Origin: Yuukianura sp. NJ FZ-2021
Taxonomy: Eukaryota
Assembly (NCBI GenBank): GCA_046563655.1
Contig: CM102287.1
Location: 8,122,001 to 8,186,000 of the forward strand
Reading direction: 5' to 3'
DNA: 64,000 bases
How positions within the stretch are numbered: position 1 is the stretch's first letter; every line of letters starts with the position of its first letter. This document shows, one piece after another, positions 1 through 53,500 of the stretch. The position numbers and the translations under genes are program-made. The notes under the pieces were generated by a model. The model saw only the letters and a list, made by a program, of their open reading frames with translations. It did no database searches and was not told where the DNA came from.

Positions 1-3000
1 GCCTAAGCCTGAATAAGCGAAATGGAGTCTCCAACTGTTCCTCATTCCATTTACGTCAGCACTCTTTTCGAGCAGGTCGAGTTCCTAGTAGAAGCCATCC
101 ATCCTCGTTTCCTGGATATTTCGGACATTCGGAGCTTCAGCAAAACGGGAACCGGGTAGTACGCTACTGCCACTCTTTTGGCCCATGCTGTGACTTGGCC
201 TAGGTTCCGAAATCCATATTTTAAATTCTCACACCAACCCACACTAAACCACGGAATCGGAGACTTTGGAACGGCAGGCGGAAGAGGTGAGATATGGCAC
301 CTCACTAGCCCCATCAACCTCAAATTCATTACGGTTCGCTCTGGGTGGCTGTCGATTTTAGAACAGTTTCAATTTTCAACAAAAAAAAGTTCAATTTTCA
401 AAAAAAGTTGAGTTGAAATTGGAATTGCTCCTTCATTTTTTTCATTTCCAGTCCCTAGCATCTAGATTTGTAATAAATAGTGTAGGTTTGATGATTAATG
501 GTGAAAGGAGATGACATGGAATTTTATTTGGGAAGGCCCTGTGTGTCTGCCCCCACTTCAGACAGTCCCTTCCACCATTTACTGTTCAAAAGACGAAAAA
601 AATGGTTTGGAACGATGAATCTTCGAGAACAAAACTTCCAATTTTTCTCATCATAATTTTTTTTCGGTGTTTTTCGTCCTGGGAGACTCTCCTATCTCAC
701 TGAGAAAAAAATATAAAAACCGAAACTGAAATTTAGGGGAGGTAGAAGGCTGTGGTGGTGCAGAAAATGGTTTTGACAATGGATGGTTTCTTATCTGGCT
801 TTCCCTATTTCATCAAGTTTGAACTTGGGGAGAGTTCCCATGGTCCTCATCATCCAATTTTAATTAACTTTTTAAATTAACACTCTCCAAAAAATAAGTT
901 AAGCTCAGATCGATTCAAAATTTTGAATAATTTCAAAACCGGTCACAACGTAACAATAAAATTGAGTCACAAATTTCAAAAACTTCTTTCAGTTTTCTTT
1001 TTTGCAAATAACGTGAGGGCTTTCGTATGAAGTTGGTTTCTTTTCAAAATCGAAAGATTCAAAATGAACGCAAAGATGAATATGTTTTGACTGAAAAGTT
1101 CAAAATGTTTTACGTAGTTGAGAATATTTTGATCTGCGGGAGAAGCTAGGGACGCGGAAGAGGAGGCTTACGGTGGAATGGGAAACGACGTGATATGAAA
1201 GACCAATTTGATCATATTATTTCCTTCATATTTTATATCAAAAACCGAAAAAAATATGGAATCCAATGGAGGAGAACCCGCCTTCGGGGGAGGTTGACTT
1301 TGAGCAGACGGCGAGGGATCGCGTGGCAGGGTGAGCCTAACCGAATTCGGAGCACATCTTTGTCATAAGTTGAGCACAGCCGTCGACAGGGAAAGGATGG
1401 AACATTGTTCACAGATCTTCATTCACCAACCGAAGGAGATTAGATTAGGGAATAATGCACAAGGTATTTCATCTCAGCTCCCTCCCAACATAACATCCAG
1501 AATACTAATCACCAACTACTTTCTCCAATATCTTCATCACAACTTCAATACCTAACATTACCATACTACAAGTTAGGTTATACGAACTTTAACCAACTAC
1601 ATATGTCAGGCTAGCCTAACTTCACAATTTAGGTTTTAACTAGGTTAACCAACTCACACGCTCTTGCCACGCATTGGCTTGATTTGACTTTCACCGACTG
1701 GGTGAGACTAATACAAGGAATAGCGGATATTCTTCTGCTCCTTCCGCATAACGAACAAAAAAACATCAGTTTTCCACTTTTGTTCATCAAGATTGTATCT
1801 TTTGTTTAAAAACGACTTGGAGTTGATGCGAATAATGCTAACGAGGCCGTTAAGATGTTTTGGTATGCAGTAGTAGTTAGACTGCAAGAATAAGGGAGAT
1901 ACTCAAGTAATGATACAATTTGTTGACATGAAGAGAGTGTGCATGCCTAGTACTTTTTGGAAGAAAAGTGAAGCTGAAGGCCAATCTGTCAGAGACTAAA
2001 CAATGGGATCCATTTAAGTTCTTAGTTCTTAGTTTTGTGTAGTGGGGTTACGTAATTTAGCCGAGAAATGTGTCAATTCACCTCAGCTTCCACATTCCTA
2101 CGGTGCACTACATGCCAATGGCAACAACTTCTGGATTGTGGAGTCGTGCCAAAAATGGCACCCTTAACCCGCTACGCCACAGAGTATCGCTTCAAAAAAA
2201 GCCGAACTAAAACTAAAACTGAGCTTAGAACAAACAAGAAATGAATTTTTTATCAATTCTAAAAACTGAACTTCTTCTATTTTGCAAAAACACCGTTAAA
2301 TTTTTCGTATACAAATAGAATGGTATCGAAGAATTATGAAAAGTTCACCGGTGGCAGTACCAAGACGCACATTCGAGAAAAGTCCTTTGTTATCATTAGT
2401 TTTTGGGTTTAGTGAAAGTACAATGACATTTTTTTTGTGTTTTGGCTACCAATTGGATCTAATCTGTGCAATATTTTGTAGAGTATCGTTGCGTTGGATT
2501 TTTAATGAATTTTTGTATCGGATGAATGTTGAAAGACTTATGATGATTGGAGTAGAAGTTGGTAGGAAGGGAAAGGAAGGGAGAAAAGTAATCTTCTGGC
2601 TCCTTCGTACCTATTTATGTTCTGGAGATAGGATACAAGGAACTGCAGAAGATGAGAAGCATGCGACTGAATATCTTTGAACAAGTCAGTTCCTCTCTGT
2701 CCTTAATTTATGGCAGCCCACAGTCACTTTTCTCCACTGAAAAAGTACTGTTTAACTCTCACTTTCTTCCATTAGGATCCGAAAGGAAGTGGAGAAAAAA
2801 TGTAGCACTTTTTCTACAACCACCGTCTCCTTATCTCGTCCAATTCCTAACCAGAAGTTAGCAAGCACTGCTCTCCTTGGGTGTAATTTTAATTACTTTA
2901 CTCAATTTACACCCAGAAAGACCTAGGTTCACCCCTCCACTTAATAAATTAACTCTCAATTTCATTTTTTCTAATTTATGAATCAACTTTCTCCGTAGGA

Positions 3001-6000
3001 GGAACCAATTTATTTAAGGCGAGGGGTGGGATTTGAAGAAAGAACAATAGAAAAACGAACAGGAATTAAAATCCCTCCTCCTGTGAGAAGAGTATCATTA
3101 GACACAGTTTCAGTTTTCTCAAAACACTAATTTTAGCTTTTTAGCCTAACAAACAGTTGAGCTTTTTACATTTACGAACATAATCAGTAACTGGTTACAA
3201 AATAAATTTTGAATTACCAAATAGAATTAAAATTAACAAATGTAGCTCAAATAGAATTATACTTTTTACTTCTTTAATGACACTTTTTACCACCAATTTT
3301 TACTTTTTGCTGTTTTTTTTTTACTCAAAATGAAAATAAAACTCAAAATGCAGATTTTCATCGAATCCACCCCATTCAGTTTTGTTTTCGTGCGACGCTA
3401 TATGATTTATATTAAATTTGCAGTTAAATAATACACACGATGAATTGCGATATTTCAGGGTTTGCAAGTTGCCAAACCATATTTTTCCTTCATTAAATTT
3501 TGGGGAAAAAATAGGTTGGACATACTGTTTGAACAACGAATAAGCAGACTTCTGCGCAGACTCACTCTAACGTTTGAGCACTGTATGAATTTTGTGAAGC
3601 AGAAACCAATTATAAGTGTTGCTTGCAGTTGCACCGTAGCGTAACCATTAAAATTCAAGTTTTCTTTTTAATGTGAAGAAGGCAGTTCATCATTTCACAC
3701 CTTTCCAAATGAAGAAATAAATCTGCAAAGAAGGATTGTTTAGTTGACAATGGAGGAAGGAGGCTGGACTTGATTTACATGCGAATAAGACTTTTTTAAA
3801 CAAGTTTTAGAATTTTTAAAAACTGTTCTAGATAAACCCTGGGCTGAAGAATACTGTGACTTGGAAGTTGTTGAACACAGAGGAAGAGGCAGGCCGAATG
3901 CGCAGTTAATTTAGTTCAGCCCAGTTCCTTTCCTTTGCTTTGTTCAGAAATTTATTACAAATTAGATTCATCCAGGGAGACTTTTTTGAATTTTTTTTAG
4001 AATTTGAAATTTAGAATAAACTCAAAAATGATTCATGGACCAGGGAGTCTTTTCTCATCTTGCTCCCCTTCTTTTTTTTAACTTAGGCTTGGCTTGGCGT
4101 TCTCTCTCTCCAGTTCTGGATTAATTTCATTCGTTTTGATTTTCTTACTGTTGGAATTAATGGAGTCTCTTTAAAAACGGGAGTCTATTATGTTGGGAAG
4201 GTCCCTTCGGAGACTTCCAAGGGCTTGAGAGCCCTTGAGAACAATCAGAGCAAGGGTTTTCCAATTGAGACTTTTCAGACACAATTAGTCACTCCTTTGA
4301 ATTTACAATTGAGAAAAACTGGAGCAGAGGGTTGGTCCTGTCTTGAGCAGGAGTGGTAGGGCATGAGCTGAATTTTGAAGACTCTTCTTTGCTAAATCAA
4401 AATTTTGATTTTTGAATTAGAAAGCATATTTTGGTGGAGAGGTGGGAAGATGAATGAGCTGTGAGGAGAGTCGTTTATGAGGAACGTGGGAAGTGGAGTC
4501 TGGAATAAATACAAACTTTGACTGGCCAAACGGCTCTCGTATGACTTATGAGTCTCCCGAGGCCTTCGAACCCTCTGCCCTTTCCCTCCGCCCTTCCACG
4601 ACCACTGGAGAAAGCATCGACATGGAGAAAGTGTCCACACTTTGGTGTCGGAGCATGCGTAGACATGGTTTTTGAAAAAAAAAGTTGACGAAGTTAGAAT
4701 TCCCAATTTTTCAGAAATGGCGGCCAGAACACAACCGAAAGATCAAAAGAGTTTCCAATTTGGACTTCTGACTGATGTAAGTACAAACTGAGGAGCATTT
4801 TCCTTTAAATGAAAAATTCTGGCTTGAAATCAATTTCTTGTGAATTTTCTGATCTTCTAATGAAGACGGCATAGTTTCAAAAGCATTCCTGAGGAAGATG
4901 AGCTCCACTCCAACTACAGATCTCTCAATCCAATTATTTCTTTTCAAAAATCGTGATTCGTGATGTTACACACGCATGAACAAACCAAAAAGTGGACTCG
5001 TTTCACTCTCGCATTGCCCCATCCAAACATGAAACGTACATCACACAATGTAGATGGACTTTGTAAAATTCAAAATTCAGAATTTGAATTTATTTCAGGA
5101 TAGCAATTCCAGACAAATCCGAAATTTCAAATCTCCCCGAAATAAAGTACAACCGCTTGCAAAATACGCAAACTGGTTTGAAGCGACGGAAAGTTAAATG
5201 TACTCTCAGTATTCTTTAAACATAAAGTCCAATTTTATTTAATACTTGTATACAAAAACGCATTTTGTAAATATAAAGATATAAATATCTAAGAATCGAA
5301 ATTTGATACGATCGAGACGCAGTGTTTACATTTCTCACGCCGAGAGAGCTCGCACCGCAAAGTTATTGATTTGTTGCGAATTTGCAAATTGCTGAGTTGG
5401 CACATCGGGAATGATGTGCGAACTCATCAATTTTGAAGATTGGCAAAGAGATCCGTTTGCAAAAAGAGTTGCGAATCCCATTACGAATTCCAAAAGTGCC
5501 ACTCCATTTTTGTTTTATAAGCAAAACCTAACGTTGTGTTGGGATTTAGGAGTGCGTATTTCCTTGTAATCAGACTCCAGCAGTATCCAACTTTCTAAGA
5601 TGTAATTCAATCTTGTTAATTCAAAAGAGTTTGGCTCCAAGATAGCACTGGCACAGGAGCATGTTCAGAAGAAGACAATGCGATCCTCTTATTTATTCTC
5701 CTCGCATCTTTTTTTATTTATTTTGGACAGGGGAAGAGGGATGAGAGCCATGAATCACCGACTCCGAAGCCACCAACGGCCTCAATCTCCACCAGAAAAC
5801 CCAAAATGGGACTTCCACAGTGGTGGTGGTGGGGCTTTTCGGTGGGACAAGGAAGCCCCTCCAGAATAAATTCCTGCAGCAAAACAACCATAGTTTCTGG
5901 AGAAACCTTCCACAAAAGTTTTCCCGGGGACTTTGGACCAGAAGAGAGATAGAGGAGTAACTCCAAGTGACGCCTCAAGATCTATTTCTTTCATCCAACC

Positions 6001-9000: not shown

Positions 9001-12000
9001 AAATCTAGAAGCTCAGATTCTTGTAGTGGAATTTCCGGAAAAACTTTCCACAGGTCAAAGGTGAAAATGTTTCTTTTTAGAATTTCACAAAGAGTGGAAG
9101 GTTTGTTGAGTGAAAGTTCAAAGTTGAAGTTCTTCGCTATTCGAATTTCGGAGATTTGGAGGGAACCGCAGTACTTACAACTGGATTCTAAAGTAAGCCA
9201 ATCTCTTGAATTCGAAAAAATTCGCATATTCGCTTAAATTTAAAACTGATGTGTGACGAAAAGTTTAGAAACTTAAGAAATTTAAAAATTAAAAAACATC
9301 CTTGAGTTTTTTAACATAATTTTCTCTTTTCGAAACTCTTTTTTCCGAAAACTTTTTCTCATGCTGCCTCCGTTCACTCTATCAGTAGAGCGGATCGATC
9401 TTTCCAAGTCCAAAAATTTCACCTCGTGAGCAGTGTCCCATGACGTCGTCCTTCCACTTACGGCTTGTGCTGAAGGTAGAGTTGTTATTATGTTTGTGTT
9501 AAATCCGTGAATCGTAGGTTTAGAAGACGATAAAGGAAGAAGGAGTGATGCTGAGAATGTGTCCATAAGTGCATTAGATTACTCCGAATTGCATTTTTCT
9601 TACCTTGCGTGAAACAATATTGGATTTTGGGGAAAGTGGGAAGACAGACCAAGGGGTGGAGGGTCGACAGAAAGTGGAATTCGGGAGATGGTTGGTCACG
9701 GAGTAATGCCTTTACGACCGTCGAGGGCCAAATAAAGAAAATGAAGGCAGTTTCTTCCTACTTTCTCCATCACAACTTTCTCCTTCCTCACAAAATTCCT
9801 TTTTCTTAGAACAAGTGGAGAACACTTGTGGAAGTGGATTATGAGGAGGGTGGAATAAGTAATTTCCCTCATGGAATTCAACTAAAAATCAAATTGATCT
9901 CATTCATTTCTTCTTCGAATTAAACCTCCTTTTACAAACAAAAGTACGGAGGAAGAAGAGCAGAACAGAAACATTTACTTTTCAAAAAAAAAAAGTTACT
10001 GTAGTTCAGTTTCCGAAAACTCTTCTTCTTTTTTCAAAAATCCGGCTTCACGTTTCCGAGAAACTTTGGCAGAGATGCATGAGCTCCATTTTTAAAACAG
10101 AGTTGATTAAAAACGGAATCTTTCATTGCGCGTTCTCCCTCACCGCCTTTTGGTAGAGTTCCAATCAAAATAAGCAAAAATTTAGTTGCAGAGTCATAAA
10201 TTTCGGAAGTGTTGAATTTATCAAAATTGTCGCCTCCCACCTCATTCTAAAATTTCACAAAAACAAAACAAAAATTCAAACAAAGCAGCAACATAATTCA
10301 ATTTTAGCAATTAACAACATTCTATGGTAAAAACTTGTATAACGGAAGTATAATAAAATAAATTAATAAATAAATAAGATGAATTAGTATACATAAATTT
10401 TCAATGATGCAAGCAGTTACTTCGAGGGAACTAACATGTAAAGCTATGTTAAGTTAGCTGATCTGCAATGTTATTAACCGGCGTACACTTCTGCAAAAAG
10501 ATTCTTCCGAGATTACTCAAATTTTGAAAATTCAAAAAGGCGAAATTAGATTGAGCAGAGATGTTATTTTGTGTTCCAACGAAACTTGGCAACAACGAGT
10601 GTGTAACTTTAGAGTGCCGTTTTGGGGGAAAGGCCTACAAGGCGTCCCCTAACGTTGTTCGTGTTCACAATTCCCACCGAATAGTTGCTCTCCTCCGGCA
10701 GCACTCGTTCCATAAACCAGTCACAAAAAACCGAATAAAACTAAAGCGGGTATTCTGCCGCTTTCTCTCCGAATCCCAAACAAATACGCACTAAAACTTT
10801 CACCCCTGCTACAAAACTCAGAATCACTGGACAACCCTACTTTTTTAAGCAACTAAACAAACCTAATGCAAAAGTGAATTTTCTAAATTTGAGCATCCTG
10901 TTGGAAAATCGATTCCCTTGAATTTAGAATTCCATATGTACTAGCAAATTTCATGAAATTGGATTTCGAGATTTTGGTAACTGCCAATTGATTCTTGTGT
11001 GTTTATACGATGACTGAAAAACAGAGAAATTTTTTCTTTAAGAGTTCGGTTATAAGCAGATTGCAAGCTTCCATTTTTTGTTTCGTTTCGAGTTGGGAAG
11101 AATAATGAAAGTTTCTACAATTTAGCCATCTTATTCTTTTAGGCGCTTCGAGTTTAAGAAATCTCGTGACCTTAGGAAAAGTTGTAAAAAAAAATTTCAA
11201 ACCGAACTCTTTCTTCGAAAAGTGGAATTGTGTGACATGGGAATCGTAATGTTATTCATCAGTTTATCCATGAAATCAAAATTAGACAGTCAAGTTCACA
11301 GTTCACAAAGTTTATGCTTTAAGTTAATTTTGTTTAGAATCTAAATTAATTCGTAGTAGTATACATCGTATTATTAACAATAAGTATTAGGAGTCCACTA
11401 GGAGGAGAATATGATGGTAGGACAAAATCAATACTGGAGGCGATTGACCTAAGGTCAAAAGGTCAAATTGCTCTACATTCCTTCTAAGTCTAAACAAACT
11501 TTAACTACTCACAAACTTTTTCTAAAACTTTTCTTCTCTACTACTTTTTCTTTCTAAAAATGTTTATACACAAAACTAGAAAGTCTGTCTCCCTGGACAG
11601 GACACAGAAGAGGACTTAAACACTACCAATAAAGTTAGTGTAAACTAACATAACTAGTCATTGTGTGTGGCCTATACAGAATCCTACCAAAAGTCTAGTA
11701 ATACTCGTCAATCCTTCATCAATTCTAAATTGCGAATCAATTCTCTCTGCGGGACTTTTGTAAAAGCTGCTCCAGTTGTTCGTTGTTTTAATTTACAGGG
11801 TTCATCCTTCCTGGTTTTAACTTATGCCTATGCTAACCTAAATTCGCAATTCGCATTTGCTTATGATCTCTGCTTTGGATAAGCTCCAGAAATTGCAAAT
11901 TTTACAAAGATACTCAACAGAAATAATAAATATTGCCACGTTTGAATTCGGAATTGGGTTTTTATGACTTAACAAAAGGACTTGGGTTTTACATTCTAAC

Positions 12001-12434
12001 TTAAAAATCAATACAGCAAAGAAACAAAATTTCGGATAAGTTTACATGCCAGACACAAATAGAACGGATGAGTTCAAATTCAAAAGTAATTTTCACATGC
12101 AGTTCAGTAATATTGGTGATCATGTTGCCCAAATATCAAACATGTTTAAAATTTTGAATCTTTGAACGAAAATTTTCGGTTTTGAATTTTAGAATAGTTG
12201 GCATAACTTGTGATAACGTTGTTCGAATTTGTAAAGCTGGAGACCAAGTTCAACTTTTCGCCTTCTTCCTGCTGGTTTTTGAACAGTTTTTAAATTAATT
12301 GAACACAATTTTTACTAATTAACAAAATAAAATAAAAATTAAAACTTTGATTTAAAAAAATCACACTTAACGTTACTAACATAAGTAAATGTTGACCTTG
12401 TTCAAATTACTCGGAATTTCTGCCAATCCTCTTT

Positions 12435-12973
12435 TCGTATACAAGTTTTTACGTGATTTTTAAAACTTTTTTTTAAATCTAAAGCATAATTACTTTCTCA
12501 ATTAAGATTTTTGCCTTTGCTTTGTGGAGAGATCCTAACTTTAAGGTTTAACTTTTGATTAGCCTTAGTTTGTAAATTGTATACAACAGGAGGAGACCAC
12601 CCTTTGCTTAACCTTCTTAAAATTTTATAAATTCTGGAAGAGTTTACCACGATTACGTTAGGCTAATCACCTAACAAAGTTAAGCTCTTAGCCTAACCTA
12701 ACCGTAGTAAAATTTCTTCTCTAACAGTATACACCTTAGTTAAAAGCTGAGAGTTATTCTAAACTGAATAGTTTGGGCATTTACGTATACGCTGCTTCTT
12801 AACTCTTCTGCTCGCTCAGGAAATGCTTTTCATTTAAAATTTAAAAGTTCTCCAGAGCAGCTTTCTGTCCTTAAGTTAATTGTTAACCTAAACATAGGAA
12901 TTAACTTAAACATAGTAGTTTAAGTTTGACGTACAACTTGGTTTCTTGGTTTCGTATAATTGGTTTCGTATAC
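12435..12973 (-). promoter_or_regulatory. Cluster of miR-iab-4-5p / miR-iab-8-5p seed matches in the presumptive Ubx 3' UTR
   Basis: Plus strand TCGTATAC at 12435 and 12966, TCGTATA at 12952 and TTACGTATAC at 12781, i.e. GTATACGA / GTATACGTAA in Ubx-sense RNA, 1.4-2.0 kb after the stop. Drosophila Ubx 3' UTR is an established iab-4/iab-8 target. Confidence 0.7.
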
Positions 12974-14416
12974 TCAAGTTAAAGTCCTATCCTTCTGGAT
13001 TATTTGGTATCATTCGCAAAGTTATAAATTAAGATTCGGGTTACGAATTGGAGCTGCAGACGGCCGTTGTTGGTTCTCTGTTTCGAATTATTCGTTTTTG
13101 AAATACATTCCAATTTTAGCAAATCTGAAATCAACAAAAACAAACCAAAATTAGAAAATTGGAAAAATTTTGTGCCGAAATTCTAAACAAATTTTTTCCA
13201 TTCCGAAATTAACTTATTGGTTATTTCTAAAATAAGTTTGAATTTAAAAATTAATAGAACAACGACTAAAACCTGCTGTTTCACACCCGAGGAAAGCCGA
13301 AAAGACTTAAAAGGGCCCTTGGTCCTTAAGAGCTTTGTTGTAAGTTTTAGTGAGTCATAAACCTATTTTGAAGGGCTCTTTCGAAGCCTCGACCGTTTAG
13401 AGCGTCATCTCTACAAATGCTTTCCATGCACAAAACATCTTTGAACAATTTTTGAAAAAGATCTGAGATGAGTGGCTCCAACCAAAGTGGAATCGAGCAA
13501 CTAGTGAGGACTAAACCGGGTTTCAGATGGCAGGGGACGAGTTATGGGAGATGCTAAAAGTTAGAATGAAGTAAACGCAGCAGTAACCTAGCCTTGGCTT
13601 AATCTGATCGAGTAGAGACGCTTTCCTGTGCAGAGTAGTTAACAATAATTTTAAGAGGTCATAAACACCGAAATTGCGGTGGTAAAAACAAAAAGTAAGA
13701 AACAAGGGCATAAAAACGTAGCAAACGGCCTATCATCCTCACCACAAAAGTTCACTCAAATTAAACAACTTTTTAAGTAGGAAAGATTTTATGATGAGAG
13801 AACATTGAAACAGGATCTGACAATATAAAAGCCCAGTAGCAACTTATTTGCGTACAGTTTGGTACTCTTGCCAAAGTAAATTGTAAAATTACCGTAAAAC
13901 TCCTCAAGAACTACACGAATGCAGAATCAAGGTACGACGTAAACTGCTTAATGCCTATTAACAACTGGAATGCGAACTTGTAACAACTAAAAATTTTGAA
14001 CTCAATCGCCGAGAAAGTGGAATTTTTTTTCAAACGGCAGGAATACGGGAGCAAATTGTCAGTTTCCAAATATTTCAAAATTTGAACTTTTTCATGTCAA
14101 ATTTTCCTTAAAAAGTGCTCCATTTCTAAATTCTCTTTTCTTTTTCCAGTTAAACGAACGTTGTGCTTAAACATAAATGAAACTTACCGTATTTGAAATT
14201 GAATTTTGTTCTGTTTGTCTGGAGAAAAGTTTTTAGATTTGAACATATTGAGAACGGAGATTGACTTGAATTCTTTGAAGAAGATTTTTTAAAGTTGAAG
14301 AATCTGAGGCTGAACGTTGTTGTTTTTTGTTGTAAAATACTTTGTGCTAAATTTGTTGTTTTCTGAGGGTGGGGCTGGTGGGGCTTGTGGAAATTAGTTT
14401 AGTTTTTGGTGGGTCT

Positions 14417-14533
14417 TCATGGCCCGTTTTGGTCATGGAGCCCGCCGCCCATTTTTGCCGCCTGGGCTTGCTTCTCCTGCTCATTCAGCTCCTTGATTGC
14501 TTGAATTTCCTTCTTGAGTTTCATACGACGATT
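14417..14533 (-). CDS. Ubx: Ultrabithorax coding exon 3 (end of homeodomain, UbdA motif, QAQA, stop)
   Basis: Acceptor ATTGCAG|AAT CGT CGT ATG. Encodes NRRMKLKKEIQAIKELNEQEKQAQAAKMGGGLHDQNGP* with TGA at 14419-14417. Too short for the ORF track, so it was read manually. Confidence 0.96.
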   Translation of the reverse strand, partial: NRRMKLKKEIQAIKELNEQEKQAQAAKMGGGLHDQNGP

Positions 14534-15056
<523 letters not shown>

Positions 15057-37800: not shown

Positions 37801-40800
37801 CCCACTACGCAGCACTCATACTAAACACGTAAGAAAATGTTAGGCTAACTTTACCTAACCTCAGAAAGGGATGCTGTCTCTCGTTCTTTGTCTAAAGGTA
37901 CATTACCTTTTGTGTGTAAGTGAAAGTAGGAATTTCGGTGGCAAATTAGAAAGAGAAAGTGCGAAGGGAAGAGAGGATTGATCTTTGAATTGGAGTCTTT
38001 CCAAGCACTAACTCAAATCTTATCAAGGGCTCCCTGACATTTCCAATTTTAGTTTCAAATTATTCTGAATTTTTTGTCAAAAGAATCTTCCAGAAATCTC
38101 AAGAAACGAACCGACGCTGCGTAAGAAACATCAATCTTTGCCCTTCTTCACTTTCTCCTTCCTGTTCTTAGAAATTTTAGAATTTTATTTTCTTTTTATC
38201 TAGAAACACTTTTCATTGTGGTGTCATCGTCGCTACAAAATTTCAAATTTCAAATCTTATTTCAAAAATAGTAGCTAACATAAACGATGGCTACAAAAAC
38301 GCAAAGGCCTTTGTATTAAATTATAAGGCTTGACAGTTCATTCGGAAATGTTCAAGTTGTAATTTAATGGAGGTTCAAATGACATTTCTTAAATTCAAGT
38401 TTTGAAAAACTGAACTGAATTTGAATTGAATGGTTGGAAATTTGAAATATCTTTCTCCAAACCAAGTTATTACTTTTATAGGAAATTTTCAGTTCGAAAT
38501 TGAATCAATGGCCTATTTAATTAATCTGAAATTGTTAACGAGACACGCAAATGTGGTACTAGGTGGTTTGAGTTGATTAAAAAAAACTTGTCTTTTTTCA
38601 ATGAATTTGTGATGTTGTTAAAAGCTGAAATTTCAGTAAAAAGTTAAGATTTTGTTATAAAGCATTTCCGCAGGAACCAGCAGGTAGGGGTTTGCTGACT
38701 TTTTGAATGAATGTCGGTGTGTATCTTGTGACTTGAGCGGGATTGATTGATTAGAGCCAGTTTGAAGTCCAAAACCAACGGAAAACAGCGGGGTGGATTG
38801 ATGTGGTTAGGGAAAAAACTATGCTGCACCTTCATTAAAGTTGAAACAACTTAAATCATCCTCCAAAAAAAACTTCATAAAAACTGGATTTCAAATTTTG
38901 AAAAAAAGTGGATTCAGCACCCAGAAGGCACAACTTTTGCACTAACTAGCCAAATAAGCAATTCATGTGTGTTGGCTTTAAAAAAATTAGGACCTTGGCG
39001 TCACATCAAACAATTTTCAAAATTTGAGGTTCAAATCCAATTTAAAATAAACAGTTCGCATTCTGTCTTCTGTCTATGCTTTCCTTGAGTTGGAGAAAGT
39101 CGTGACTCGTTCCAGTCCCACTTGGAGCATGCAAAGCGCTTTCTCGGCTTTTCTCAAAGTTTCAAAATCCGCCGGAAGATGGCTCTTCATAGGCAGTGTT
39201 ACAGACACAACAGCTTTCCCTGACGCCATCGTATGCTACTTGAAGGTTAGGGACAGCTAAGTTTAAGGCTTAACCTAACATTAATAAGTTATGTTAAGGT
39301 TGTAGAGCTTTTAAATCTGGTTTAATGGTTCCATTAATTACAATTGACAGATTCATGAACATACAGAAGGTCGTTATGATGATCCAGTAGACTATAAGTT
39401 TTCTTGTGTTGTGTACATTACTTATCCTAGTTCCAATCAAAATCAGGTGTAAATTGAGCTTAACTTTCACACGGTCTGGCTGCTTCAAAAGGAAAGTGGA
39501 AAACGATTTGAACCAAAACTTTTCACCACGACTGACTACTTTTACTGACAGTTCGTATGAAAACTTACTTCGAGGCAATACGTATACAATACAAACGGGA
39601 CAAGAATGGGCGCGAAACACGCAGATGATTTGAAATGACGCAACTCATTTCTGCGGCATTTTTTTGAATTGATTGTATAGCCTAACCTCCACTTTTTTGT
39701 TTACTGAATAACGGGTTCGACAAATCAAATATAATCTACAGATCGTGTCCTCATAATAGAAGTAGCAACGCTGTAAACTGAAACCCGAGATTTAAAGAAA
39801 AAAACTTACATTTTATTTCTTAAATAAAGTTTGGAAACAACAGTGAGTTTTCCAATTTTGAGAGAAAACAACTCAGCGACTACTTTTGCAAAAACTTTAA
39901 GTTTAAGTTTAGTTTAATGTTGTCTCAAAGTTGTCCACGAAGTTTACACAAAGTAACTTTTCTGTCTCCCGATGAAATACTTTTCCTATTTATCATAATT
40001 TGGTCATTACAAAAGACAAGTCCACTTAACTTCAACTTCCTCAAGTGAAACAATCCATTTTCAAGTATCTCCAAATCTTCAACAATTTCTCACCTACTCT
40101 CCACTCCAAACATTTCCAAATTCAGAAACTACTTTTTCTAAAAATGTCTCAGGTTTGAAATTTGCCTTAGGAGAAAATCGGCGGGTAGATGAGGATAACA
40201 TTTTGTTTACAAAATCTGATAGACGTTCTCTCGCTACTTTCACTGATTTGAAGGTGTGAAAAGTGGCACTCCCAAAATCGGGTATTTTGGTAAATTTAAT
40301 TAAAGATGCTAATGGAATTAAGTGAAAGTGAGGAGAAGGAAGAGCAACAGTTGAAGTGCCTACTAAAATCTAATGACAACATCTCCTCCAAGTCTAATTT
40401 CATTAACACAGAAAGCCAGGATTCTTTCACTTGTGCAATTACTTTCACTCTCAATTAATCTGATACTTTTCTGATGTCTTTGATTTTTTTGTAAATTGCC
40501 ACATTTGACCGTTTTCTTCTCAAGTGAAAGTTGAGTTGAAAACTTAGAGAGAAAAAAATCGTAACTTTATTCACGTTCTCAATCTCAACATGAGCGGATT
40601 AATCAAGCAGTTTTTAATCCTGGGATTTTTCCTATCCAGACATGTGCGTAAGCAACAAAAATTCATTTTGATTTGAAACCAAAAATTAAATGAAAATTCA
40701 AGTTCTCTTTCCTTGAAGCTCAGATTTCAATCTTGCATTTGAGTAAAATATTTTTATGCTCTTTGATTACTCGTTAGAATGTTTCACAACATCTAAATTG

Positions 40801-43800: not shown

Positions 43801-46282
43801 AGCCTACATAGGAGTTAGGTTATAGCCAGGGTCTTGAACTGAGAAAAGTGAAAATCATTCTGCCAAAAATGTTGCAAAATTTTCAAAATTAGCAGCATTT
43901 CTAAATCGAATTTTTCAGTGCAAAACTGTTCATTAGCGCGACGAAAAACTAACCTTTTCATAATTTTTGTGGAGATTTCCACAAAAAATTATTACACGGC
44001 GTATTATTTTGACCAAAAAAAAAACTCAGATTTTGAATTTTCATTGTCGGGCTGGTTTGTCGTGTTTTGCTTTGTTATTTGAACAAAAAATTTTGTTTGA
44101 ACAAAAAAGTGATTCAAAGTAGAACAGGAAAGGGAAACGACTTCGAATTTTGCTCTAGTTTCCCTTTGCCCGACTTTTAGTTGTGCTTTTGAAGGGCAGG
44201 AGAGAGGCAGAGAACTTTCGCGTGGACTTTTATAGGAAATCAAGACTTTCTCTTATTGTTTCAAACTCAAATGGAAACCTTAACCCACAATAATCATTCA
44301 CTTTTGTTACCAAAACTATTTTCAAAACGATTCATTCTAGTACTACTCAAAGTCGTTGTAATGATAATAACAATAATAATTCACAAAATTGTAACATTAG
44401 GTTAGGTGCTACTTAAAAATGCATTTCAGACTCTCAAATACCTTGCATAAGAACCACTTATACATTCGCACTCAATATTGCAAAAAATAAAACTTCTTCA
44501 AAAAAAGTTTTGATTTTTCTAAATTTCTAAAAATTGGCATTTTCAAAAGAAATGCTATCGTACAAATTCCTTCGATTCTGGTTCAACTTTTTTCCCCACT
44601 TTTTGGTTAAACGAACTTTCATTTTATGTATTTTTTATTTTTACTTTCACAACCTCAGCGAGTCCTCAAATTTCACTCCTTCATTCATAAAAGTCAGAGT
44701 TTTACGACGGAGCTTCTTTTACTCCCAGTGTTTAAAACTACTTGAGCCTTTTGACTCTGCAAATTGTTTGCCTACGCACCTCATCAAGTTGGGACATAAA
44801 AACAGAAGCTAGGAGTCATAAAAGTCAATAGAACGTGTTTCTCAAACGACCTCGTAACTATAAACTAAAGGAGTCAACTTTTTGCAAATCTTTTCGCAAA
44901 CAGTCTTCTGACGGCCCGCAAATTTGCAAATTGCGACAAAACATCCGTTTTGCCTTTTAGGAAGTTTCTAAGTCTTAATTCTTCCTTTCTCTGATGCTAA
45001 TGAAAACTTTCTTCCCGTTGGCCCATTAATATCAATATCTATTTTCTATTAGGAGTTGGCCAGCACTAGACTAAGCTTTGCTAGCGCTCCGCTCGCTCGC
45101 TAACTTAGCTAGCTCCTTGCCGCCTCCATAACTCACTTCCTTGTCTCCGTGAAGCAAAAGGAAAGGGAACTAAGGAAGCAGAAGAGATGAATTGCCTTTT
45201 GCATTTCACAGGCCCAAAAAGAAACTTGTAGCCGCGGCAGTGGCAGCGACCGCCGCGGCGTACATTTTTTTTGCAACGCGGCTTTCTTTCTTGTATAAGG
45301 AACAAGGACACGAGCCACCACACTTAGGCCAAGGTTTACATAGGCATCAAGAACCTAGCCTTTTCGGAATCTTTTACACACAAGTGTACTAATGTTAAGT
45401 TAGGTTTTTTTGGAAAGAAGAAAAGTCGGTGGGCTTTGCGGAAAAAGAGGATGAAGGGTGTAATTTTTGTGCTGATTTATGGATGCATGCATTCCCCATT
45501 AGGCTAATAAAGCCCTTCCACCATAATGAGAATTCAAAAAAAGAATCGGCTACTACCTACTAAAGCTTTCCTCCACTTTCACGAAATCAAAACGCGCGCT
45601 TTCTTCTATTGATTCTTGACTTTCACTGCTTTCACCTTTTCTTTTTCAACAAATGTTAACAAAACCAGTTTCAAAATCAACTTGAGTAGACCAAGCATCC
45701 AGTATTTCTGAAATACGTTAAACATTTTGCTAAACTTTTTTGCAGACTGAACTTTGCAAAATTGAAAGTGCGAAACATGGAAGATTCTACATTTTCTTAA
45801 TTTCTTGGATTGCCTGCCATTGAATTTTTAACTTTCAAGCAGCTTTTGTTTAGTTTATGAGTTAAGATTTAATTTTTAATCGCACCTCAGGTACAAAACC
45901 AAAATTGTTTGCGTAAAAATTAAAATTTTTTGAAAATTGGAAAATTCGGATTGTTGTTACTACTCTTCAAATTCAAAATCGCAATAAATCTTCTTCGAAA
46001 TACAAAGCAGTAGGCAGAAGCAACTAGTATAAACGTAGAACGAGGTTGATGTCAAAGTTATAAAAAATTTCGAGTTGGAATGCAAATTTGGAATTATTAG
46101 TAAGTTCCAAACAGAAATACTTTCACTGTACTAAGATAAATTCATGTTATTGTTGACCTGAAAAGTTTGCTCAATTTTGGGTAAGAGTCATTTGGTCATC
46201 GACTTTTGTGATTTTTTAAAGCAAAAGCAATAACTTAAAATATAAATGTATGAATATAAAAATAGGAAAAAGAGTGTTGTAC

Positions 46283-46297
46283 CTAAATAGGACTGAC
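46283..46297 (-). other. Ubx: Candidate 15-nt alternative extension of exon 1 (second in-frame 5' splice site)
   Basis: G GT CAG TCC TAT TTA G|GTACAA: a second AG|GTA donor in the same phase, 15 nt downstream, would add GQSYL to the linker. Confidence 0.55.
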
Positions 46298-46859
46298 CTG
46301 CAATGGCCATCCAGGGGTAGAAGGTGTGGTTGGCGGATTGTTGAAGTTGAGATGCTGCCTGTGACGAGACGACTCCATTGTTGAGGGAGCATGTGGCATT
46401 CCATGAGGTCAGAGATCGGGAAGGACTCGTGGGTTCAACCGAAGGATGGCCAGGAGTTGCATAGCGTCCGTCTGGAGTACAAACGGCGGGGCGAACGGGG
46501 ACTCCCGAGCTGGACCCAGTTGAGCCACCGCTCCCACCGCTCGACGTCTGCCACCCGCCTGACCCCGCCCCATGTCCACCAACGCTACTGCCAGTGGTGG
46601 CGCTGAGGTCTTTTGAAGAGTAGCCATTGGCTTGATCCTTACATTCCAGCTTGTACTGCTGCTGAGAGTCTTGGAGGCTGGAAGCGCCGTAGAGTTTACA
46701 GGCAGCGGCTGTAGCGTCGTACGGAGAGTCTTGGGGGGCCCTTTGATGATGTTGTGAGTAAGGGGACATGCCGAGTCCTATTGGAAAGCGGTAGTTGTTG
46801 GGGTCAGAGGCTGACGGAGTTCCGTAGAATCCGCTCTGTTCAAAGTATGAGTTCATCAT
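46298..46859 (-). CDS. Ubx: Ultrabithorax coding exon 1 (N-terminus to YPWM hexapeptide)
   Basis: Translates MMNSYFEQSGFYG...YRFPIGLGMSPYS...SPYDATAAACKLY...RPAVCTPD...NHTFYPWMAIAG, all diagnostic Ubx motifs. ATGs at 46859 and 46856. Ends at a phase-1 donor GCAG|GTCAGT (intron starts 46297). Confidence 0.97.
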
Positions 46860-47209
46860 CTTGACCTGGTCAAGTTGTGTTGGGGTCAAAAAGTTAAAGT
46901 GAGGGTCCGAATAGGGTCCAATTGTTAACAAATCCGTTTTCACTTCAGAAGAATTTTGGATGTTTGAACCATTTTTTTGCAGTTTGAAGTTGAAAATTTT
47001 ATTGGAGGTTTTATTGCTCGTAAAGCTTTTGTGTTGAAATCATTTCGCTTAAGCACCTTGCTTTTAGTGTACTTACAACTCAAGGGTCCTTTTTTTGGTT
47101 TGTACACCCTTGTTTTCAAAACAATGTGAAAAGGTATTAGCTTTCACTTTCCACTTTGTCAAAAAACAGTATTTTTAAAAACTTTTTAAGTTGAATTTTT
47201 TTTCAAAGT

Positions 47210-47553
47210 TCGTATACACTTGAAGTGATGATGATGTTGACTTAATTGACTGGAATTTTAGTTTTCTTTCGTATTTTCTTCTCGTATACTTTGAAGAGTT
47301 GACGTATATTGAATTCGTTTGTTGACTTTTGTTTTTTTCACTTGTAACTTCACAATTTTTAAAACCTTGGGTATTGTGTCAAGATTTTCAAAGTTGGACA
47401 AATTGCTAAACTTTTTACTAAATTCTCCGAAATTCCGGAAGTGACTGACTTTGTTTTTCGAAGCAATTAACTTTAACTGAGGTTAACTTTAACTAACTGA
47501 CATGACCTTAGGTGATGTTGTGAAGACTTTTGGTGTGACCTTTAGTCGTATAC
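47210..47553 (-). promoter_or_regulatory. Cluster of miR-iab-4-5p-complementary motifs upstream of the Ubx start codon (presumptive 5' leader)
   Basis: Plus strand TCGTATAC at 47210, 47282 and 47546, and ACGTATATTGAAT at 47302, all in the orientation complementary to the miRNA in Ubx-sense RNA. Confidence 0.5.
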
Positions 47554-50500
47554 AGAACAATATTGAGTAAGACTGTGTGGATGTGTCTGCGTCAAGGTAC
47601 AAGTGAAGAATGAAAGGAAAGTGAAGAGTTGAGCTTCTCAAAATAATTTTTTGTTGTGTGTGGATGATGTCGGAAGCAAAAGCACGTGAAGTTAGGACCG
47701 TCGTGGTGGTGGTGCAAGAAGACGCTAAGGTTTTGCCAGTCAGTAGTTCTGCCAACACGTGAGTACTGGCCGCTTCTGCGACTCTCGAGCACTGCTGAAC
47801 TCTGTTTAGAACAAACTTGAAGCACTGTGAGCGTCGAATCCAATTCGAACTTGGAAAGCCTAAGCTAACCTTAGAGGTTTGGGAAGCGTCAAAGGGCGAA
47901 GCTTGCAGCTACCCCTATCCGACTCAATTCGAAACTAAACAAGCTCAGTGAAAGTTTTTTTTTGAAACTTTTTCGTCCCTTACGAAAGCACCCAAAATGT
48001 AAGTTTCTGTTCAAACAGGCTCGGGTTCAACTTCGGGTTCTCAGGGATGAAACAAACAGAACAAAAATTTCAAAGTTTTCCAAACTTGGCAATACGAGCG
48101 ACTCCCAGCGTCGAAGTTTCGACATTCTTCTCCTCTTTGCTTGTTCAAAAAATTGCGGCAAAAACTTGCACAAAATAAGTTTTTTTTTTACAATTCAAAA
48201 ATGAATTGTTCCAGTAGTTTTTATTTAAGCAAGAGCAGAATTTGATAATGACTAAAATAGTTTAAATATAAATAAACATTAATTAAAATTTACGATTTTA
48301 AAATTTTGTAAAAATTAAATTATACTGAGAATTCTTTCCACTTTCATTCCCCTAACTTGCTTCATCAAACCCAAAAAACTGCTCACTTAATGATAACACC
48401 TAAGACAAAAGAAAAGTTCTTTAGTGTTTGGAATGTTGGCCTAACCTAACCTGTGTTTTCCTGAAAACAGATTTGGATTTTTTTACGTTTCAATTTTTTT
48501 TTCCAAAATTTTGAGCAAGTTGAATAACGTTTCGTTGAAATGCGGAAACCTCATTCCCTGTATCCAGGCGGGACACTTGAAAGGGTAAATGAGCCCTTGA
48601 TTTTTATTTGATTGTCAAATGACAATAGTATGAGGGTAGAAAAAAATAGTATGAGGGGCAAATGGAAAAGTAGTTTGAAACAGAGCCTATTTTTCCGTCT
48701 AAAATAGCTTCACTAGAAACTAGAAACGGAGCCTTAGAAGCTATAATCCCAAGTTTCAAAAACTATTTCCTCTTCAGTGGTCCATTGTCATCAAGGCACA
48801 AGTGGGTACTTGGGCAGATGACTTCCCTAACCGCATCTTCACTTTCATTTGACCCATCCTTAGGTCACAACTTCGTTTGTTGTTGTTTCATCAATCACAG
48901 CGGCCCTTCTTTTTCAAAATTGCTTTCTCTTTTTCTCAAAACTTTTTTGGTTTTTGTCAAAATGAAACTTTTTGTGTCGCTGTTTTGAACTTTTGGAAAG
49001 GATTTTTATGAGAAAGAAATTGACGTGACTACGACCACTGTTGAGTTTATGGACCCGTTGAGTTGCTCCAATTTATGAGATTTTGGCTGGTTTTATTCAA
49101 GTTCTTGACAAAGAATTTCCTTGATATTCTTTTAGGTTACGTCTCCCATTGTCACAATCCACATCTTAACAAGCCTCATAAATTTCATCCTCCTCCGTAT
49201 AGCCTAACAACATATAAAAAAAAACCTACACTTCAAGTCCAATCTTCCAAAATTTCAAGGAAATGTACAAAATTTTTGGACAAAGTGGTTCGCCGCATGC
49301 CTCTCCGCACACTCGCCTGGTGTCGTTTTGCAACTTTTCCAAAAACAGGATTTGGAAAACAAGAAAGGAATTTCCAGTGGAAGCATATTGCTGGAGGGTG
49401 GTTTTTGGTGGTTTCCAAAATTGTGATCTTCATCAGGATCAGCAGCAGCAGAGGTCCGTGTGCCATCATCAACGTTAGGTTGGAATGATCATTTTCATTC
49501 CTCACACTTCATTCTGGAGCCCTTTGGTTCTGGATCGCAGAAGTAGCGGGTCCTAAGGCCTTCTAGAACCTCCTCAAATGGATGGAAAATGTAGAGAAAT
49601 GAGACTATTAGGAGAGGACAAATGTCATAATTTTCTCCTCAAAATGAAGTCATAGTCATGAAAATAAAGTGTTCTCAATTGCTTATGGAATGGCTAGAAA
49701 ATGAAAATCTCGTGAACAACTCTTGAATAGTGTATTTGGAGAAACTAGTACTAGAGGGATAGCTAGAGAGGGGAGTCCGCTTGTTGTCAATTGAAGAAAA
49801 AGCTTCCAAAAGTATTTGGAACCAACTTGAATTGTAAAAATGAAGAAAAAAACTTGTCAAAGGACTGGTTTATAAAGTTGTAAACACTAAATCAATCCAA
49901 CTGTAACAAAAAAAATCAAAAGTTTAAACTCGAAAGATGCACGAACACAATTCAGCTCTAGTCCTAGCTCCTGCTGTAGCAAAAAAAAAATTCATGCCGA
50001 AACTTCAAAAAAAAAGTGTTCCAAAAAACAAGAAAAAAATGAAGAAAATTTTCAAGAAGATTTCATTTTCAAACTCCCTCGAGAAACAATTTGAACTCAA
50101 TTTGAAAGTCAAAAATTTATTCTTCCTGCGTTTTGAAAGAGAAAGTTTTATTTGCGCCAACTAATTTCTTGGAGCTTTTTTTTCACCTCGATAGAGACTT
50201 ATATATTAAAAAGTATTTCCAAATGTGTAGAAGTTTGTTTTGATTCAAGTTTTGAAAATTTTGAAGAACTGTTCTGGCTTGTAAAAACGCACTCGACTTA
50301 TGTGAATGAATCTTGAATGTAGTGTTTAAAAGCAAATTGAAAAAGAAAATACTAAAATGAACGCCAGTGAAGCGTACGAAGTTCATCGAAAAGGCTAACC
50401 TTGGGATCCGCTATTCTTAAGATTTTTTTTATGTTCCGCAGGATTCTGTTTAAGTTTTGAATTGAAGAAGGGTTGATGGTGCAGAGAGTGGTGTGTTGAT

Positions 50501-53500
50501 GAAGGCATTTATCATGTTCCGTGTTTTGTGTTCTTGGCAGTTTGCGTTGGAAGTTTCATCACTTGGGCCTTGAGTTTAAGCTTTGAAAATCTGCTTTGGA
50601 ATTGTATTCTTTTGGGCTGGGACGATGTTAGCGTGTGGTTTTTGAATTCCATTGTGGGATTAGCACTACACTTTCCCCTTCATCTTATAATGTTGAAGAA
50701 CTAAGGCTTAGGTTGATCTTCCTTTGGTTTAGAGATGTACTTTGGCAGAGGATTCGCATCCATCGGGAGACTAACCCCATTCATCACTGTCACCCTGGCA
50801 GAAGGGAAGAAGTTAAGGAGGGGTCGTCTCTTCCGTCATCTCCAAAACCAATGCTAACATCTATCCACCATCACAGAGCTCAGATAGGACGAAATCCTTA
50901 TGTGTAGAATGGCTGCAGAACGATGGACACTCTGCACAATCTAAACCAAGACAGACAAAAACCAGAAAACTTCTTAAGTTTTAAAGAGAAATTTAACTTT
51001 CATTCATTTTCTCCCACACATTTTCACATTCCAGGAAAAATTGAAAAATCAGCGACTTTTCAAACATTTTCGGAAGTTCGACGGCCGTCGATCTGGAAAA
51101 TCTAAACTTTAAAATAATTTCATTGCCTCAGTTTCATATCCGTTTCCCGCGGCGTTTATATTTAAGAAAAAATGAAAAATATTCAATTATTGAATTTTTA
51201 CCAAATTTTTGAGGCAAAGATGATGCAAAACTTTCTCCAATGTAAAATTTCTTTGATATTCCAACATCGTCGAAACTGAAGTGCATTCTGTAGAAAAGGC
51301 GAGTCTTGAAAAATCGATTAAAAGTGTATATGGTAGGACTGTGTAGAATCACATTGTAGATGCGCTGGCGCTGTTTTTGAAGCGCCTTCAAATCCTGTTC
51401 CAGCTCCCTACTATTATATTCCACCGTTGTATAAAGTGGGATTTCTAGAAAAGGATTTTCTCTCAAAATGGAAAAGGATTGTTTTCGTTGTTCAAATGGC
51501 TTGAAAAACCTGGCTCAAAATGGACTCCCAGCCTTTTCCTTAATCGATTCACAAGAAAGTGGAAACATTTCTCTATTCTATAAAGTTCTGGAAGTTCCAG
51601 AACATGTTCGCATGAGCACAACGATTGCATAGTGTATGATTCAAGTGTCGCTCCTTATGAGGCTTGGATTTTCTGGAAGACACACCATGACCAAAGGGAT
51701 TAGAATCTTTAACTTCACAATTTTAAATTTGGGAAGCCAAAATGTTCCGAAGTCTAATGCAACTTTGTTACGCTTAATCTCAGAAGCTGAGAGGTGATCA
51801 GGAGACACTTTGTGGAGTAACCTAACTTTTTTTGGAATACTCTAACAGTCTAGAGTAAAGTTTAATCGCTATCCTTCAGTAAAAATCTTTTGGAGAGACA
51901 CGAGAGTTCAAAAGTGGATCATTTAGAGGATGAGGGTTGACAATTTTGATAAGATCCTTCACAGACCAAAGTCATCTTGGTCATTGGCAACTTTTCTCTT
52001 GGGACCAGTCCAAGTATCATCATCACCATCACATCACCAAAGTGTCACTTCTGTAAAATCTGGAACTTTGGAAAGTAGATAGGAGCGTTGGGTTAACTTA
52101 AGTGTGAGGTCAGAGGTCAAGGCAGAAATTGTGTTACTCTGTGACGACTTCTGGAACCTGGAATTAAATGGAGGGAAATGAAGAAGCTTCTTTTCTAATC
52201 CTAAAATCTCAGTTGATTTACTTTAGAGTTAGATTTGTGACGTTGATTCAAGGGGATGAAGTCTTGTAGAACAAAGAAAACGGGTTTCAAAGTCCTCCAA
52301 CTATGGTCATACAGACGGAGTTTTTAAATTTATGAAAAACTTTTATGAAAAACGCTCTGGCTACTTACTCCTTTGCTCCCTTGTTCGTATTCACAAAGAA
52401 TTTTATATTAAAATTCATCATCTGAAGTCAGTTTCCTATTTCATTCCTTGAAAAAACTTATGCAGAATGCAACAACGTATACTTTTGAACAAGAAAACAC
52501 ATTAAGGTATTGCATTTCCTTGGATTCAACATTTTTTAAAAAAGGTGTTCAGTGTCCCGGGGGTTCCACATTTTTTATATGAAGCAATTATTTAAAAAAC
52601 TAGTTTTTAAAAAAAAGTCCAAGAAATTGTGCCATTAGTAACACAATTGAACAATGCACTTGAGCTGGAGATTGCAAAGAGCCCTGAAGGCCCTACCCTG
52701 TTTTCGGCCAATTCTGTATAATGGCCAATTGGATAATTTCAAAAATTATAAATTTGAAATTTTGAATTTGAAAAGAGCATCTGCGTGTGTGTGATTAGCA
52801 CTCACTTGGCTTAGAGCTTAAACTGAGGTGGGAATTATAGCAATTTAAAAATTGAATTCATTCCAATTTTATAATTTCCAATTTCCAAAATGCTGCTGGA
52901 CATTATCTGATCAAGAAAAGTTACAATTTAAAATGTACAAAAGTTTCTTCTTTTTTTCAAAAAGTGAGACTTGAATTTTGATTTTGAGCCAAGAAAAAAT
53001 GTTTAGAGCTGGCGGAAGGCAGAGAGCTAGCTGAGCCAGAACAGTTTTGATTTGATTTTGATTTCTGTTTTGTTTCTTTCGTTGTTCCTGTCCAAAGCCC
53101 ACTTCATCATTAGAGTGAAGTGGTCTGTAATTAATTTAATCGGTTCTGGAATAGCAATGGACTGGCTAGTTCCACCACTGAATGAACTTACACTTGGAGG
53201 AGAAGTAGTTCTGCAGTCTGGTTTTAGTATTCCTTCAACGAAAACTTGGAAAGAAACAATGGAAACTTGTAATTACGTAAACACTCTTGCACAAAAAGTT
53301 ACGCTTTGAATTTTTTGGCTTTGAAACTTAAAAGGCAGAAAACACTGCGTTTTCAAAAGCAGAAAAAAAGTTGAGATTTGCGATTAAAATCAAAATTATG
53401 ATGAAGCAGGAGAAAAATGGTGGTGGCAGGAATGGAAAATATAGCACGACATGTTTCTCTCTCTACGAAACTGTAATTTTCTGTGTTCAAGAAAATCATG

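Follow-up and report, generated by a model that had tools for sequence, protein, structure and literature searches.

Predicted miR-iab-4-5p sites clustered in the 5' leader of springtail Ultrabithorax

The Ubx locus and its seed-matched words

We analysed a 64-kb stretch of DNA from Yuukianura sp. NJ FZ-2021 (contig CM102287.1, positions 8,122,001 to 8,186,000; hereafter the window), which carries on its minus strand the complete Ultrabithorax (Ubx) gene of a springtail (Collembola). Several hundred nucleotides (nt) before the Ubx start codon lies a cluster of words that match the seed of the microRNA (miRNA) miR-iab-4-5p, and a second group follows the stop codon. Our analysis suggests that the first cluster probably constitutes a set of iab-4-5p response elements in the 5' leader of the Ubx mRNA, with the second group downstream. 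The coding parts of the gene are as follows.

46296..46859, minus strand: coding part of Ubx exon 1, 188 aa (MMNSYFEQ...FYPWMAIAG), with the ATG at 46859 and the donor CAG/GTCAGT
14832..14995, minus strand: Ubx homeobox exon, ending at KIWFQ; the intron inside the homeobox comes next
14417..14533, minus strand: last Ubx coding exon (NRRMKLKKEI...), stop codon TGA at 14419-14417

Among named proteins found by BLASTP, Ubx of Orchesella dallaii comes nearest to the exon-1 protein (72%), followed by that of Folsomia candida (56%); closer relatives reach up to 93%.

On the plus strand, TCGTATAC is found at 47210-47217, 47282-47289 and 47546-47553, and ACGTATATTGAAT at 47302-47314. Since Ubx occupies the opposite strand, the Ubx-sense reading of TCGTATAC is GTATACGA. 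An earlier reading made from the sequence alone (the sequence-only reading) had listed these three exact 8-mers and the word at 47302, all in one orientation, 350-700 nt before the ATG. All were found, and the measured distance is 351-694 nt.

47546..47553, minus strand: leader site 1, GTATACGA, 8mer-A1 to miR-iab-4-5p, 694 nt before the ATG
47282..47289, minus strand: leader site 2, GTATACGA, 430 nt before the ATG
47210..47217, minus strand: leader site 3, GTATACGA, 358 nt before the ATG
47302..47314, minus strand: weak site, sense ATTCAATATACGT, a 6-mer seed match (nt 2-7)

In mosquito tables miR-iab-4 is given as a 22-mer beginning ACGUAUAC (PMC2834634). The complement of its nt 2-8 is GUAUACG, which together with an A opposite nt 1 makes the word found in the leader. 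Each of the three copies of GTATACGA in the window leader therefore combines Watson-Crick pairing to nt 2-8 with an A at the target position opposite nt 1 (t1), and the description of these words as canonical 8mer-A1 sites for iab-4-5p on Ubx-sense RNA was borne out. The word at 47302 had been said to match nt 1-13 of the miRNA at 12/13 positions, and it does; the one mismatch lies opposite nt 8.

The sequence-only reading had also proposed that enrichment be computed with dinucleotide shuffling. We found that TCGTATAC occurs six times in the window, 6/6 on the plus strand and thus in the Ubx-sense orientation, against a mean of 0.29 for both strands in dinucleotide shuffles; six copies were attained in 0/100 shuffles, and the maximum was 2. 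The 7-mer CGTATAC/GTATACG has ten matches in the window against about 1.0-1.1 expected. Nine of these are Ubx-sense, and the tenth is a palindromic partner at 12784/12785. Within the 1200-nt window leader there are three sites against 0.014 expected, a count attained in 0/1000 shuffles.

The copies of TCGTATAC outside the leader lie at 12435 and 12966, 1.45-1.98 kb past the stop codon, and at 2305, 12.1 kb past it. The first two belong to a downstream cluster.

12966..12973, minus strand: GTATACGA, 1.45 kb past the stop codon, in the putative 3' untranslated region (UTR)
12952..12959, minus strand: TTATACGA, 7mer-A1 type
12781..12790, minus strand: GTATACGTAA, 7mer-m8 to iab-4-5p, overlapping ATACGTAA (12781-12788), the expected iab-8-5p match
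12435..12442, minus strand: GTATACGA, 1.98 kb past the stop codon

In the 2.4 kb after the stop codon, three sense 7-mers were counted against 0.026 expected, and 0/1000 shuffles attained three. The fly Ubx 3' UTR measures 2,396 nt (PMC3041157). A cluster at 1.45-1.98 kb would fit a 3' UTR of fly size, and we consider it probable that the downstream cluster lies in the 3' UTR. No clear AATAAA poly(A) signal was seen by eye in 11900-14560.

Beyond the leader and these 2.4 kb, there are three further sense copies of GTATACG(T/A), at 52475-52482 (5.6 kb 5' of the ATG), 39580-39587 (intron 1) and 2305-2312 (12.1 kb past the stop codon). About 0.55 per strand would be expected window-wide (P of about 0.02). 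These outlying words may reflect other sense transcripts, a very long 3' UTR, or chance.

Sense-only clusters in other springtail leaders

One scan of metagenome contigs with an alignment of springtail Ubx exon-1 proteins gave five contigs, L001-L005, whose exon-1 proteins are 74-95% identical to that of the window. Exon 1 of L002 is 96% identical to that of Orchesella dallaii. L001 has only 255 nt before its ATG, with no sites there, and was excluded from the leader statistics. In the other four contigs sense GTATACG was found at the following positions relative to the ATG.

L002: -524, -761, -1028, -2027, -2205
L003: -141, -238, -327, -949
L004: -443, -516, -809
L005: -542, -654

Thus at least two sense sites are present in 5/5 leaders of at least 970 nt (the window and L002-L005), with 2-5 per relative. 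Taken together, the 1200-nt leaders of these five species hold 15 sense and 0 antisense copies. The sole antisense copy 5' of an ATG is the palindromic partner of the L002 site at -2205, and another lies in the L001 intron. Sense sites were absent from 6417 nt of locus DNA beyond leader and exons (the L003 intron and far-upstream L004 and L005), and from the coding parts of all loci.

In a blastn comparison L004 alone aligned with the window 5' of the ATG, and positional conservation was judged on that pair only. The two leaders are 52.9% identical over aligned pairs, yet the three 8-mers are retained in order. Site 1 has a collinear counterpart in L004 at -809, site 2 at -516 and site 3 at -443, so that sites 2 and 3 are spaced 72 nt apart in the window and 73 nt apart in L004. 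At the place that matches the weak site, L004 carries CTATACGT.

The counts per leader (3, 3, 2, 3 and 4) compare with shuffle means of 0.007-0.041, and each was attained in 0/1000 dinucleotide shuffles. We also ran a blind scan over all 7-mers with a composition-corrected score, for which the -log10 Poisson tails of a word under a first-order Markov model were summed. GTATACG headed the ranking, followed by TATACGA. The score of GTATACG was 23.3 over the four leaders that are mutually unalignable, against a maximum of 7.9 in 200 shuffles, and 30.5 over all five leaders, against a maximum of 9.1 in shuffles. The conservation in related Ubx leaders that the sequence-only reading had put forward as a check is therefore present, in that four other leaders retain a sense-only cluster and the seed match tops the blind scan. 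This is preferential conservation above background, and it makes a strong computational case for selection on the sites.

The bases next to the seed match were tallied at 17 leader sites from the five species. At t1 there is an A in 14, a U in two and a C in one (P of about 1e-4 at 36% A). Argonaute sites show an A at this position and not the U needed for pairing to the miRNA's first base. The adjoining position t9 is A or U at 16/17 leader sites, and the other flank positions follow base composition. The AU content of the flanks exceeds the leader average at 13/17 sites.

The sequence-only reading had further taken the words to be canonical sites for miR-iab-8-5p, and this claim did not hold. 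From the iab-8-5p sequence given in that reading, whose seed lies two bases further along, the expected match is ATACGTA, and it has no copies in the five long leaders or in the 255 nt of L001. Because ATACGTA is absent from the leaders examined, the leader words are best described as iab-4-5p sites and not as shared iab-4/iab-8 sites. GTATACC, the iab-4-3p match, likewise has no copies in the leaders.

The word AAACCAA recurs beside sites, namely in the window downstream at 12940-12973 (GTATACGAAACCAATTATACGAAACCAAGAAACCAAG), in L004 near -443 (GTATACGAAACCAACC) and in L003 near -327 (GAAACCAAGTATACGA). In the five leaders it occurs nine times in sense and never in antisense orientation, and it may be a second small motif.

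Probable position of the sites in the mRNA and alternative readings

Contig L002 is a spliced Ubx transcript or a copy of one, as it runs from exon 1 into the homeobox through KIWFQNRRMKL with both introns absent. Its 282-aa Ubx open reading frame (ORF) at 2292-3140 is preceded by a leader of 2291 nt, which holds five sites and is without another long ORF. Because this spliced contig carries them in its leader, the sites are exonic in the Orchesella-type springtail L002.

In the window, the distribution of ATG triplets points to a leader that covers the sites.

46860..48124, minus strand: predicted 5' leader of Ubx, 1265 nt, an ATG-poor zone covering all three sites
47580..47662, minus strand: leader block of 83 nt with 88% identity to L004 and with an Inr-like (initiator-like) TCATTC whose A+1 would be at 47611 (-752)

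A 5' UTR that is scanned can be expected to be poor in upstream ATGs. We found three ATGs in -1 to -1265, against about 18 expected, which makes this the poorest such stretch of the sense strand in 64 kb; sliding 1265-nt windows with at most three ATGs amount to 0.13%, and every one of them overlaps the predicted leader. The last 1100 nt of the L004 leader likewise have three ATGs, and the 2291-nt L002 leader has 13 ATG against 56 CAT. From this depletion of upstream ATGs we infer a window leader of about 1.2 kb, with a transcription start site (TSS) near 48010-48125 and all three sites included. The L002 leader, at least 2.29 kb long, is poorest in ATG distally, with three in -1100 to -2291. 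This would be either an unusually long scanned leader or a case of internal initiation.

The window leader region contains five Inr-like words with no DPE-like (downstream promoter element-like) partner. The block at 47580..47662 is the likely location of a 41-nt exact run shared with L004, and it is possibly a conserved leader element or an alternative core promoter. Upstream of the predicted leader, two further stretches match L004, 48574-48682 with 71% identity over 112 nt and 49064-49111 with 79% over 48 nt; both are candidate promoter-proximal regulatory elements. A scan of the whole window with Rfam returned no family at the gathering score.

The sequence-only reading had proposed that this Ubx mRNA carries iab-4 sites in both its 5' leader and its 3' UTR. 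The five sites in the spliced leader of L002, the ATG-free zone of the window and the downstream cluster all speak for that proposal; for the window's own sites, the surrounding sequence suggests membership in the mRNA.

Several observations weigh against the view that the leader cluster is an iab-4-5p response element. In Drosophila cells canonical sites are reported to "function primarily in 3' UTRs" (PMC6172730), and in Drosophila embryos iab-4-5p is described as being without major effect on a conserved Hox target (PMC3290615). Inr-like words stand at -639, -619 and -587 in the window, and any of these as the sole start would exclude site 1 from the mRNA. The cross-species sample comprises five springtails. 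A crude family-wise statistic, the maximum over all 7-mers of the number of leaders that hold the word twice, was non-discriminating, in that A-rich words equalled the observed value; shuffles equalled it in 14/300 cases for five leaders and in 61/300 for four. The composition-corrected score replaced this statistic because A-rich words swamped it. Predicted accessibility of the sites is unremarkable, with a median percentile of 69 (range 11-93, without a formal test). Finally, when paired with the full miRNA, none of 20 sites surpassed 95% of its flank-shuffled controls in stability, so that 3' supplementary pairing is not in evidence. The TTGAAG continuation, which the sequence-only reading had taken for an echo of the miRNA body, must accordingly be given up, and TTGAAG flanks are also absent in the closest relative, L004. 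Because of the A at t1 in 14/17 sites and this lack of excess 3' pairing, the leader sites are seed-only sites.

The sites might act at the RNA level with a reader that is not iab-4-5p; a sequence-specific RNA-binding protein or a further small RNA sharing the seed could take that part. Any RNA-level reader would account for the strand specificity and for the presence in the mRNA, and the presence and expression of iab-4 in the window species are presumed. We know of no other arthropod miRNA with this seed. The conserved positions coincide with Argonaute positions t1-t8 plus an A or U at t9, including an A at t1 that is not the pairing U, and miR-iab-4 exists in a springtail Hox cluster (PMC5490193). 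On this evidence we consider another RNA-level reader unlikely.

It is likewise improbable, in our judgement, that iab-4-5p binds without classical repression, acting instead by activation or stabilisation, as is reported for miR-10a on 5' terminal oligopyrimidine (TOP) mRNAs and for miR-122 on the leader of hepatitis C virus (HCV), or that the sites of the window species are part of an upstream transcript, non-coding or promoter-associated, and not of the Ubx mRNA. A review (PMC3565276) lists positive effects of 5'-UTR binding, and the sense site at 52475-52482, 5.6 kb 5' of the ATG, hints at other sense transcripts. However, in a relative the spliced contig L002 has the sites within the coding mRNA, the ATG-free zone spans the window sites, ordinary downstream sites would lie on the same mRNA, and iab-4 represses Ubx reporters in fly and beetle (PMC3597655).

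The word could also be a directional DNA element a short way downstream of the Ubx start site, recognised by a transcription factor or by a factor associated with the core promoter, with the seed identity a coincidence. In all five species the sites are indeed no more than about 1 kb away from the probable promoter, the conserved block with its Inr-like word is 58 nt 5' of site 1, and GTATAC is palindromic, as dimeric DNA-binding proteins favour. Yet the information extends to one side only (a G and then an A, with GA after 13 of 18 leader copies of GTATAC), unlike a palindromic DNA site, and there are 15 sense to 0 antisense copies. The same oriented word is found 1.4-2.0 kb past the stop codon and, in a mature mRNA, up to 2.2 kb from the ATG, and the positions and spacing of the sites vary freely across species. 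Moreover, the top 7-mer of a blind scan is the seed match of the one miRNA known for Ubx, which by chance would happen about once in 16,000. We therefore regard a DNA element as quite improbable. Chance, or a local repeat carrying the word, is barely credible: sites 2 and 3 do share a loose TTCAA-n-GTATACGA context, but the window count was attained in 0/100 shuffles and each leader count in 0/1000, the cluster is common to four unalignable leaders and the site flanks are otherwise unrelated, which refutes this explanation as far as sequence statistics go.

Further features of the gene were noted. An intron of about 300 nt (14533-14832, minus strand) splits the Ubx homeobox after KIWFQ, and the junction is confirmed by the spliced L002 mRNA. 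Fifteen bases past the exon-1 donor there is a second GT (TTTAG/GTACAA; 46281-46296, minus strand), whose use would append QSYL to MAIAG. A "GQSYL" linker isoform, which QSYL matches, is reported for Folsomia candida Ubx, whose cDNA was obtained by 5' RACE (PMC7616481), and reading through gives QSYLG, QSFIG or QSFLG in the relatives P0002-P0005 as well. This second GT is probably a conserved alternative donor. In intron 1, a 65-nt element at 45452-45516 is 86% identical to L003:2164-2228 in the opposite orientation, and lies about 0.6-0.8 kb from the end of exon 1 in both; it may be either a conserved element of the intron or a small mobile element common to the two.

A model of iab-4 control and its relation to known systems

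The most probable reading of the locus remains that the leader cluster comprises iab-4-5p response elements. The miRNA itself is placed in the Hox cluster of Folsomia candida (PMC5490193). The iab-4 seed is reported to be identical across the species examined, including Daphnia (PMC3041157), and the hairpin arms are described as almost completely conserved in all sequenced arthropods, including tick (PMC3041157; PMC3597655; PMC3290615). Springtails fall within the insect-to-Daphnia/tick bracket of this conservation. For the window we infer a TSS 5' of the sites, the same miRNA in the species concerned, and repression on binding.

Binding of iab-4-5p at the leader sites would recruit GW182 and with it the deadenylation and decapping machinery, and leader-bound iab-4-5p may also hinder 43S scanning. 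The outcome would be less Ubx protein behind its proper domain, with a posterior miRNA clearing residual Ubx output. In fly embryos the primary transcripts of iab-4 arise mainly in A4-A7 (PMC3290615). Sites in the leader would act on every Ubx isoform irrespective of the poly(A) site used, which may matter because differential iab-4 regulation through alternative 3' UTRs is reported for fly Ubx (PMC3597655).

A bolder version of this model is possible, although we hold it to be doubtful. The 5' leader may be the main and ancient iab-4 response element of springtail Ubx, with seed-only 8-mers kept throughout the sampled divergence of Collembola in a leader of 1.2-2.3 kb that is almost free of ATG. 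The RNA-induced silencing complex (RISC) on the leader would then block scanning and trigger decay independent of the 3' isoform, and so help to set the Ubx/abd-A boundary that separates the retinaculum (A3) from the furca (A4). If this were true, Ubx would be the first Hox gene for which control from the 5' end by the miRNA of its cluster is shown, and would offer a natural model of how miRNAs act through a 5' UTR, in an animal tractable to RNA interference (RNAi).

The pair of iab-4 and Ubx is a textbook example of how a miRNA encoded in the Hox cluster acts on a Hox gene nearby, and in the work described in PMC3597655 and PMC3041157 it is studied through 3' UTRs only. S2 cells are reported to lack iab-4 (PMC3597655). 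How far miRNAs act from the 5' UTR in vivo is unsettled, with a weak general signal only reported for flies (PMC6172730). A multi-site cluster held by selection while the leader around it diverged past alignment would offer a concrete test system for such action. In Orchesella, parental RNAi and in-situ hybridisation are workable, and Ubx gives sharp appendage phenotypes (PMC3910676). The Folsomia genome paper reports that Ubx is relocated and leaves its continued control by miR-iab-4 as a question (PMC5490193); because the conservation of the sites is strong, our analysis argues that springtail Ubx is under such control. We found no earlier account of iab-4 sites in the leader of Ubx, or of springtail Ubx being controlled by a miRNA, and two papers on springtail Ubx mention neither "UTR" nor "microRNA"; subscription papers were outside the search, so an earlier report is possible.

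The closest known system is the set of iab-4-5p/iab-8 sites in the Ubx 3' UTR of Drosophila and Tribolium (PMC3597655; PMC3041157), with which the springtail case shares the miRNA, the target, the seed word, the presence of several redundant sites and their turnover between species. The downstream cluster of the window at 12435-12973 resembles that arrangement. The leader cluster, which lies 351-694 nt 5' of the ATG, does not have the 3' UTR location of the classical iab-4 element, and the springtail leaders examined are without an iab-8-5p-type match. The target searches described for Drosophila and Tribolium covered 3' UTR or 3' downstream sequence only (PMC3597655; PMC3041157), whereas the best-supported springtail cluster is in the 5' leader.

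Sites in 5' UTRs are rare but have been described elsewhere. In Drosophila, about 840 canonical 5'-UTR sites are estimated to be conserved above background, and detectable though weaker targeting is reported (Agarwal et al. 2018, PMC6172730). These are canonical 8mer and 7mer seed matches, as in springtail Ubx. That signal is genome-wide, within one genus and made up mostly of single sites, whereas springtail Ubx has 2-5 per leader in one developmental master gene whose leaders are unalignable. The two-ended "miBridge" targets (2009, described in PMC3565276) resemble the springtail case in that a single mRNA carries sites for one miRNA at its two ends. In miBridge the miRNA's 3' end is used on the leader, while the sites in springtail leaders match the seed and show no excess pairing to it (0/20). 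Engineered 5'-UTR sites (Lytle et al. 2007, via PMC3565276) indicate that seed-type leader sites can repress translation. Those are artificial sites in reporters; the springtail sites, in contrast, are natural and under apparent selection.

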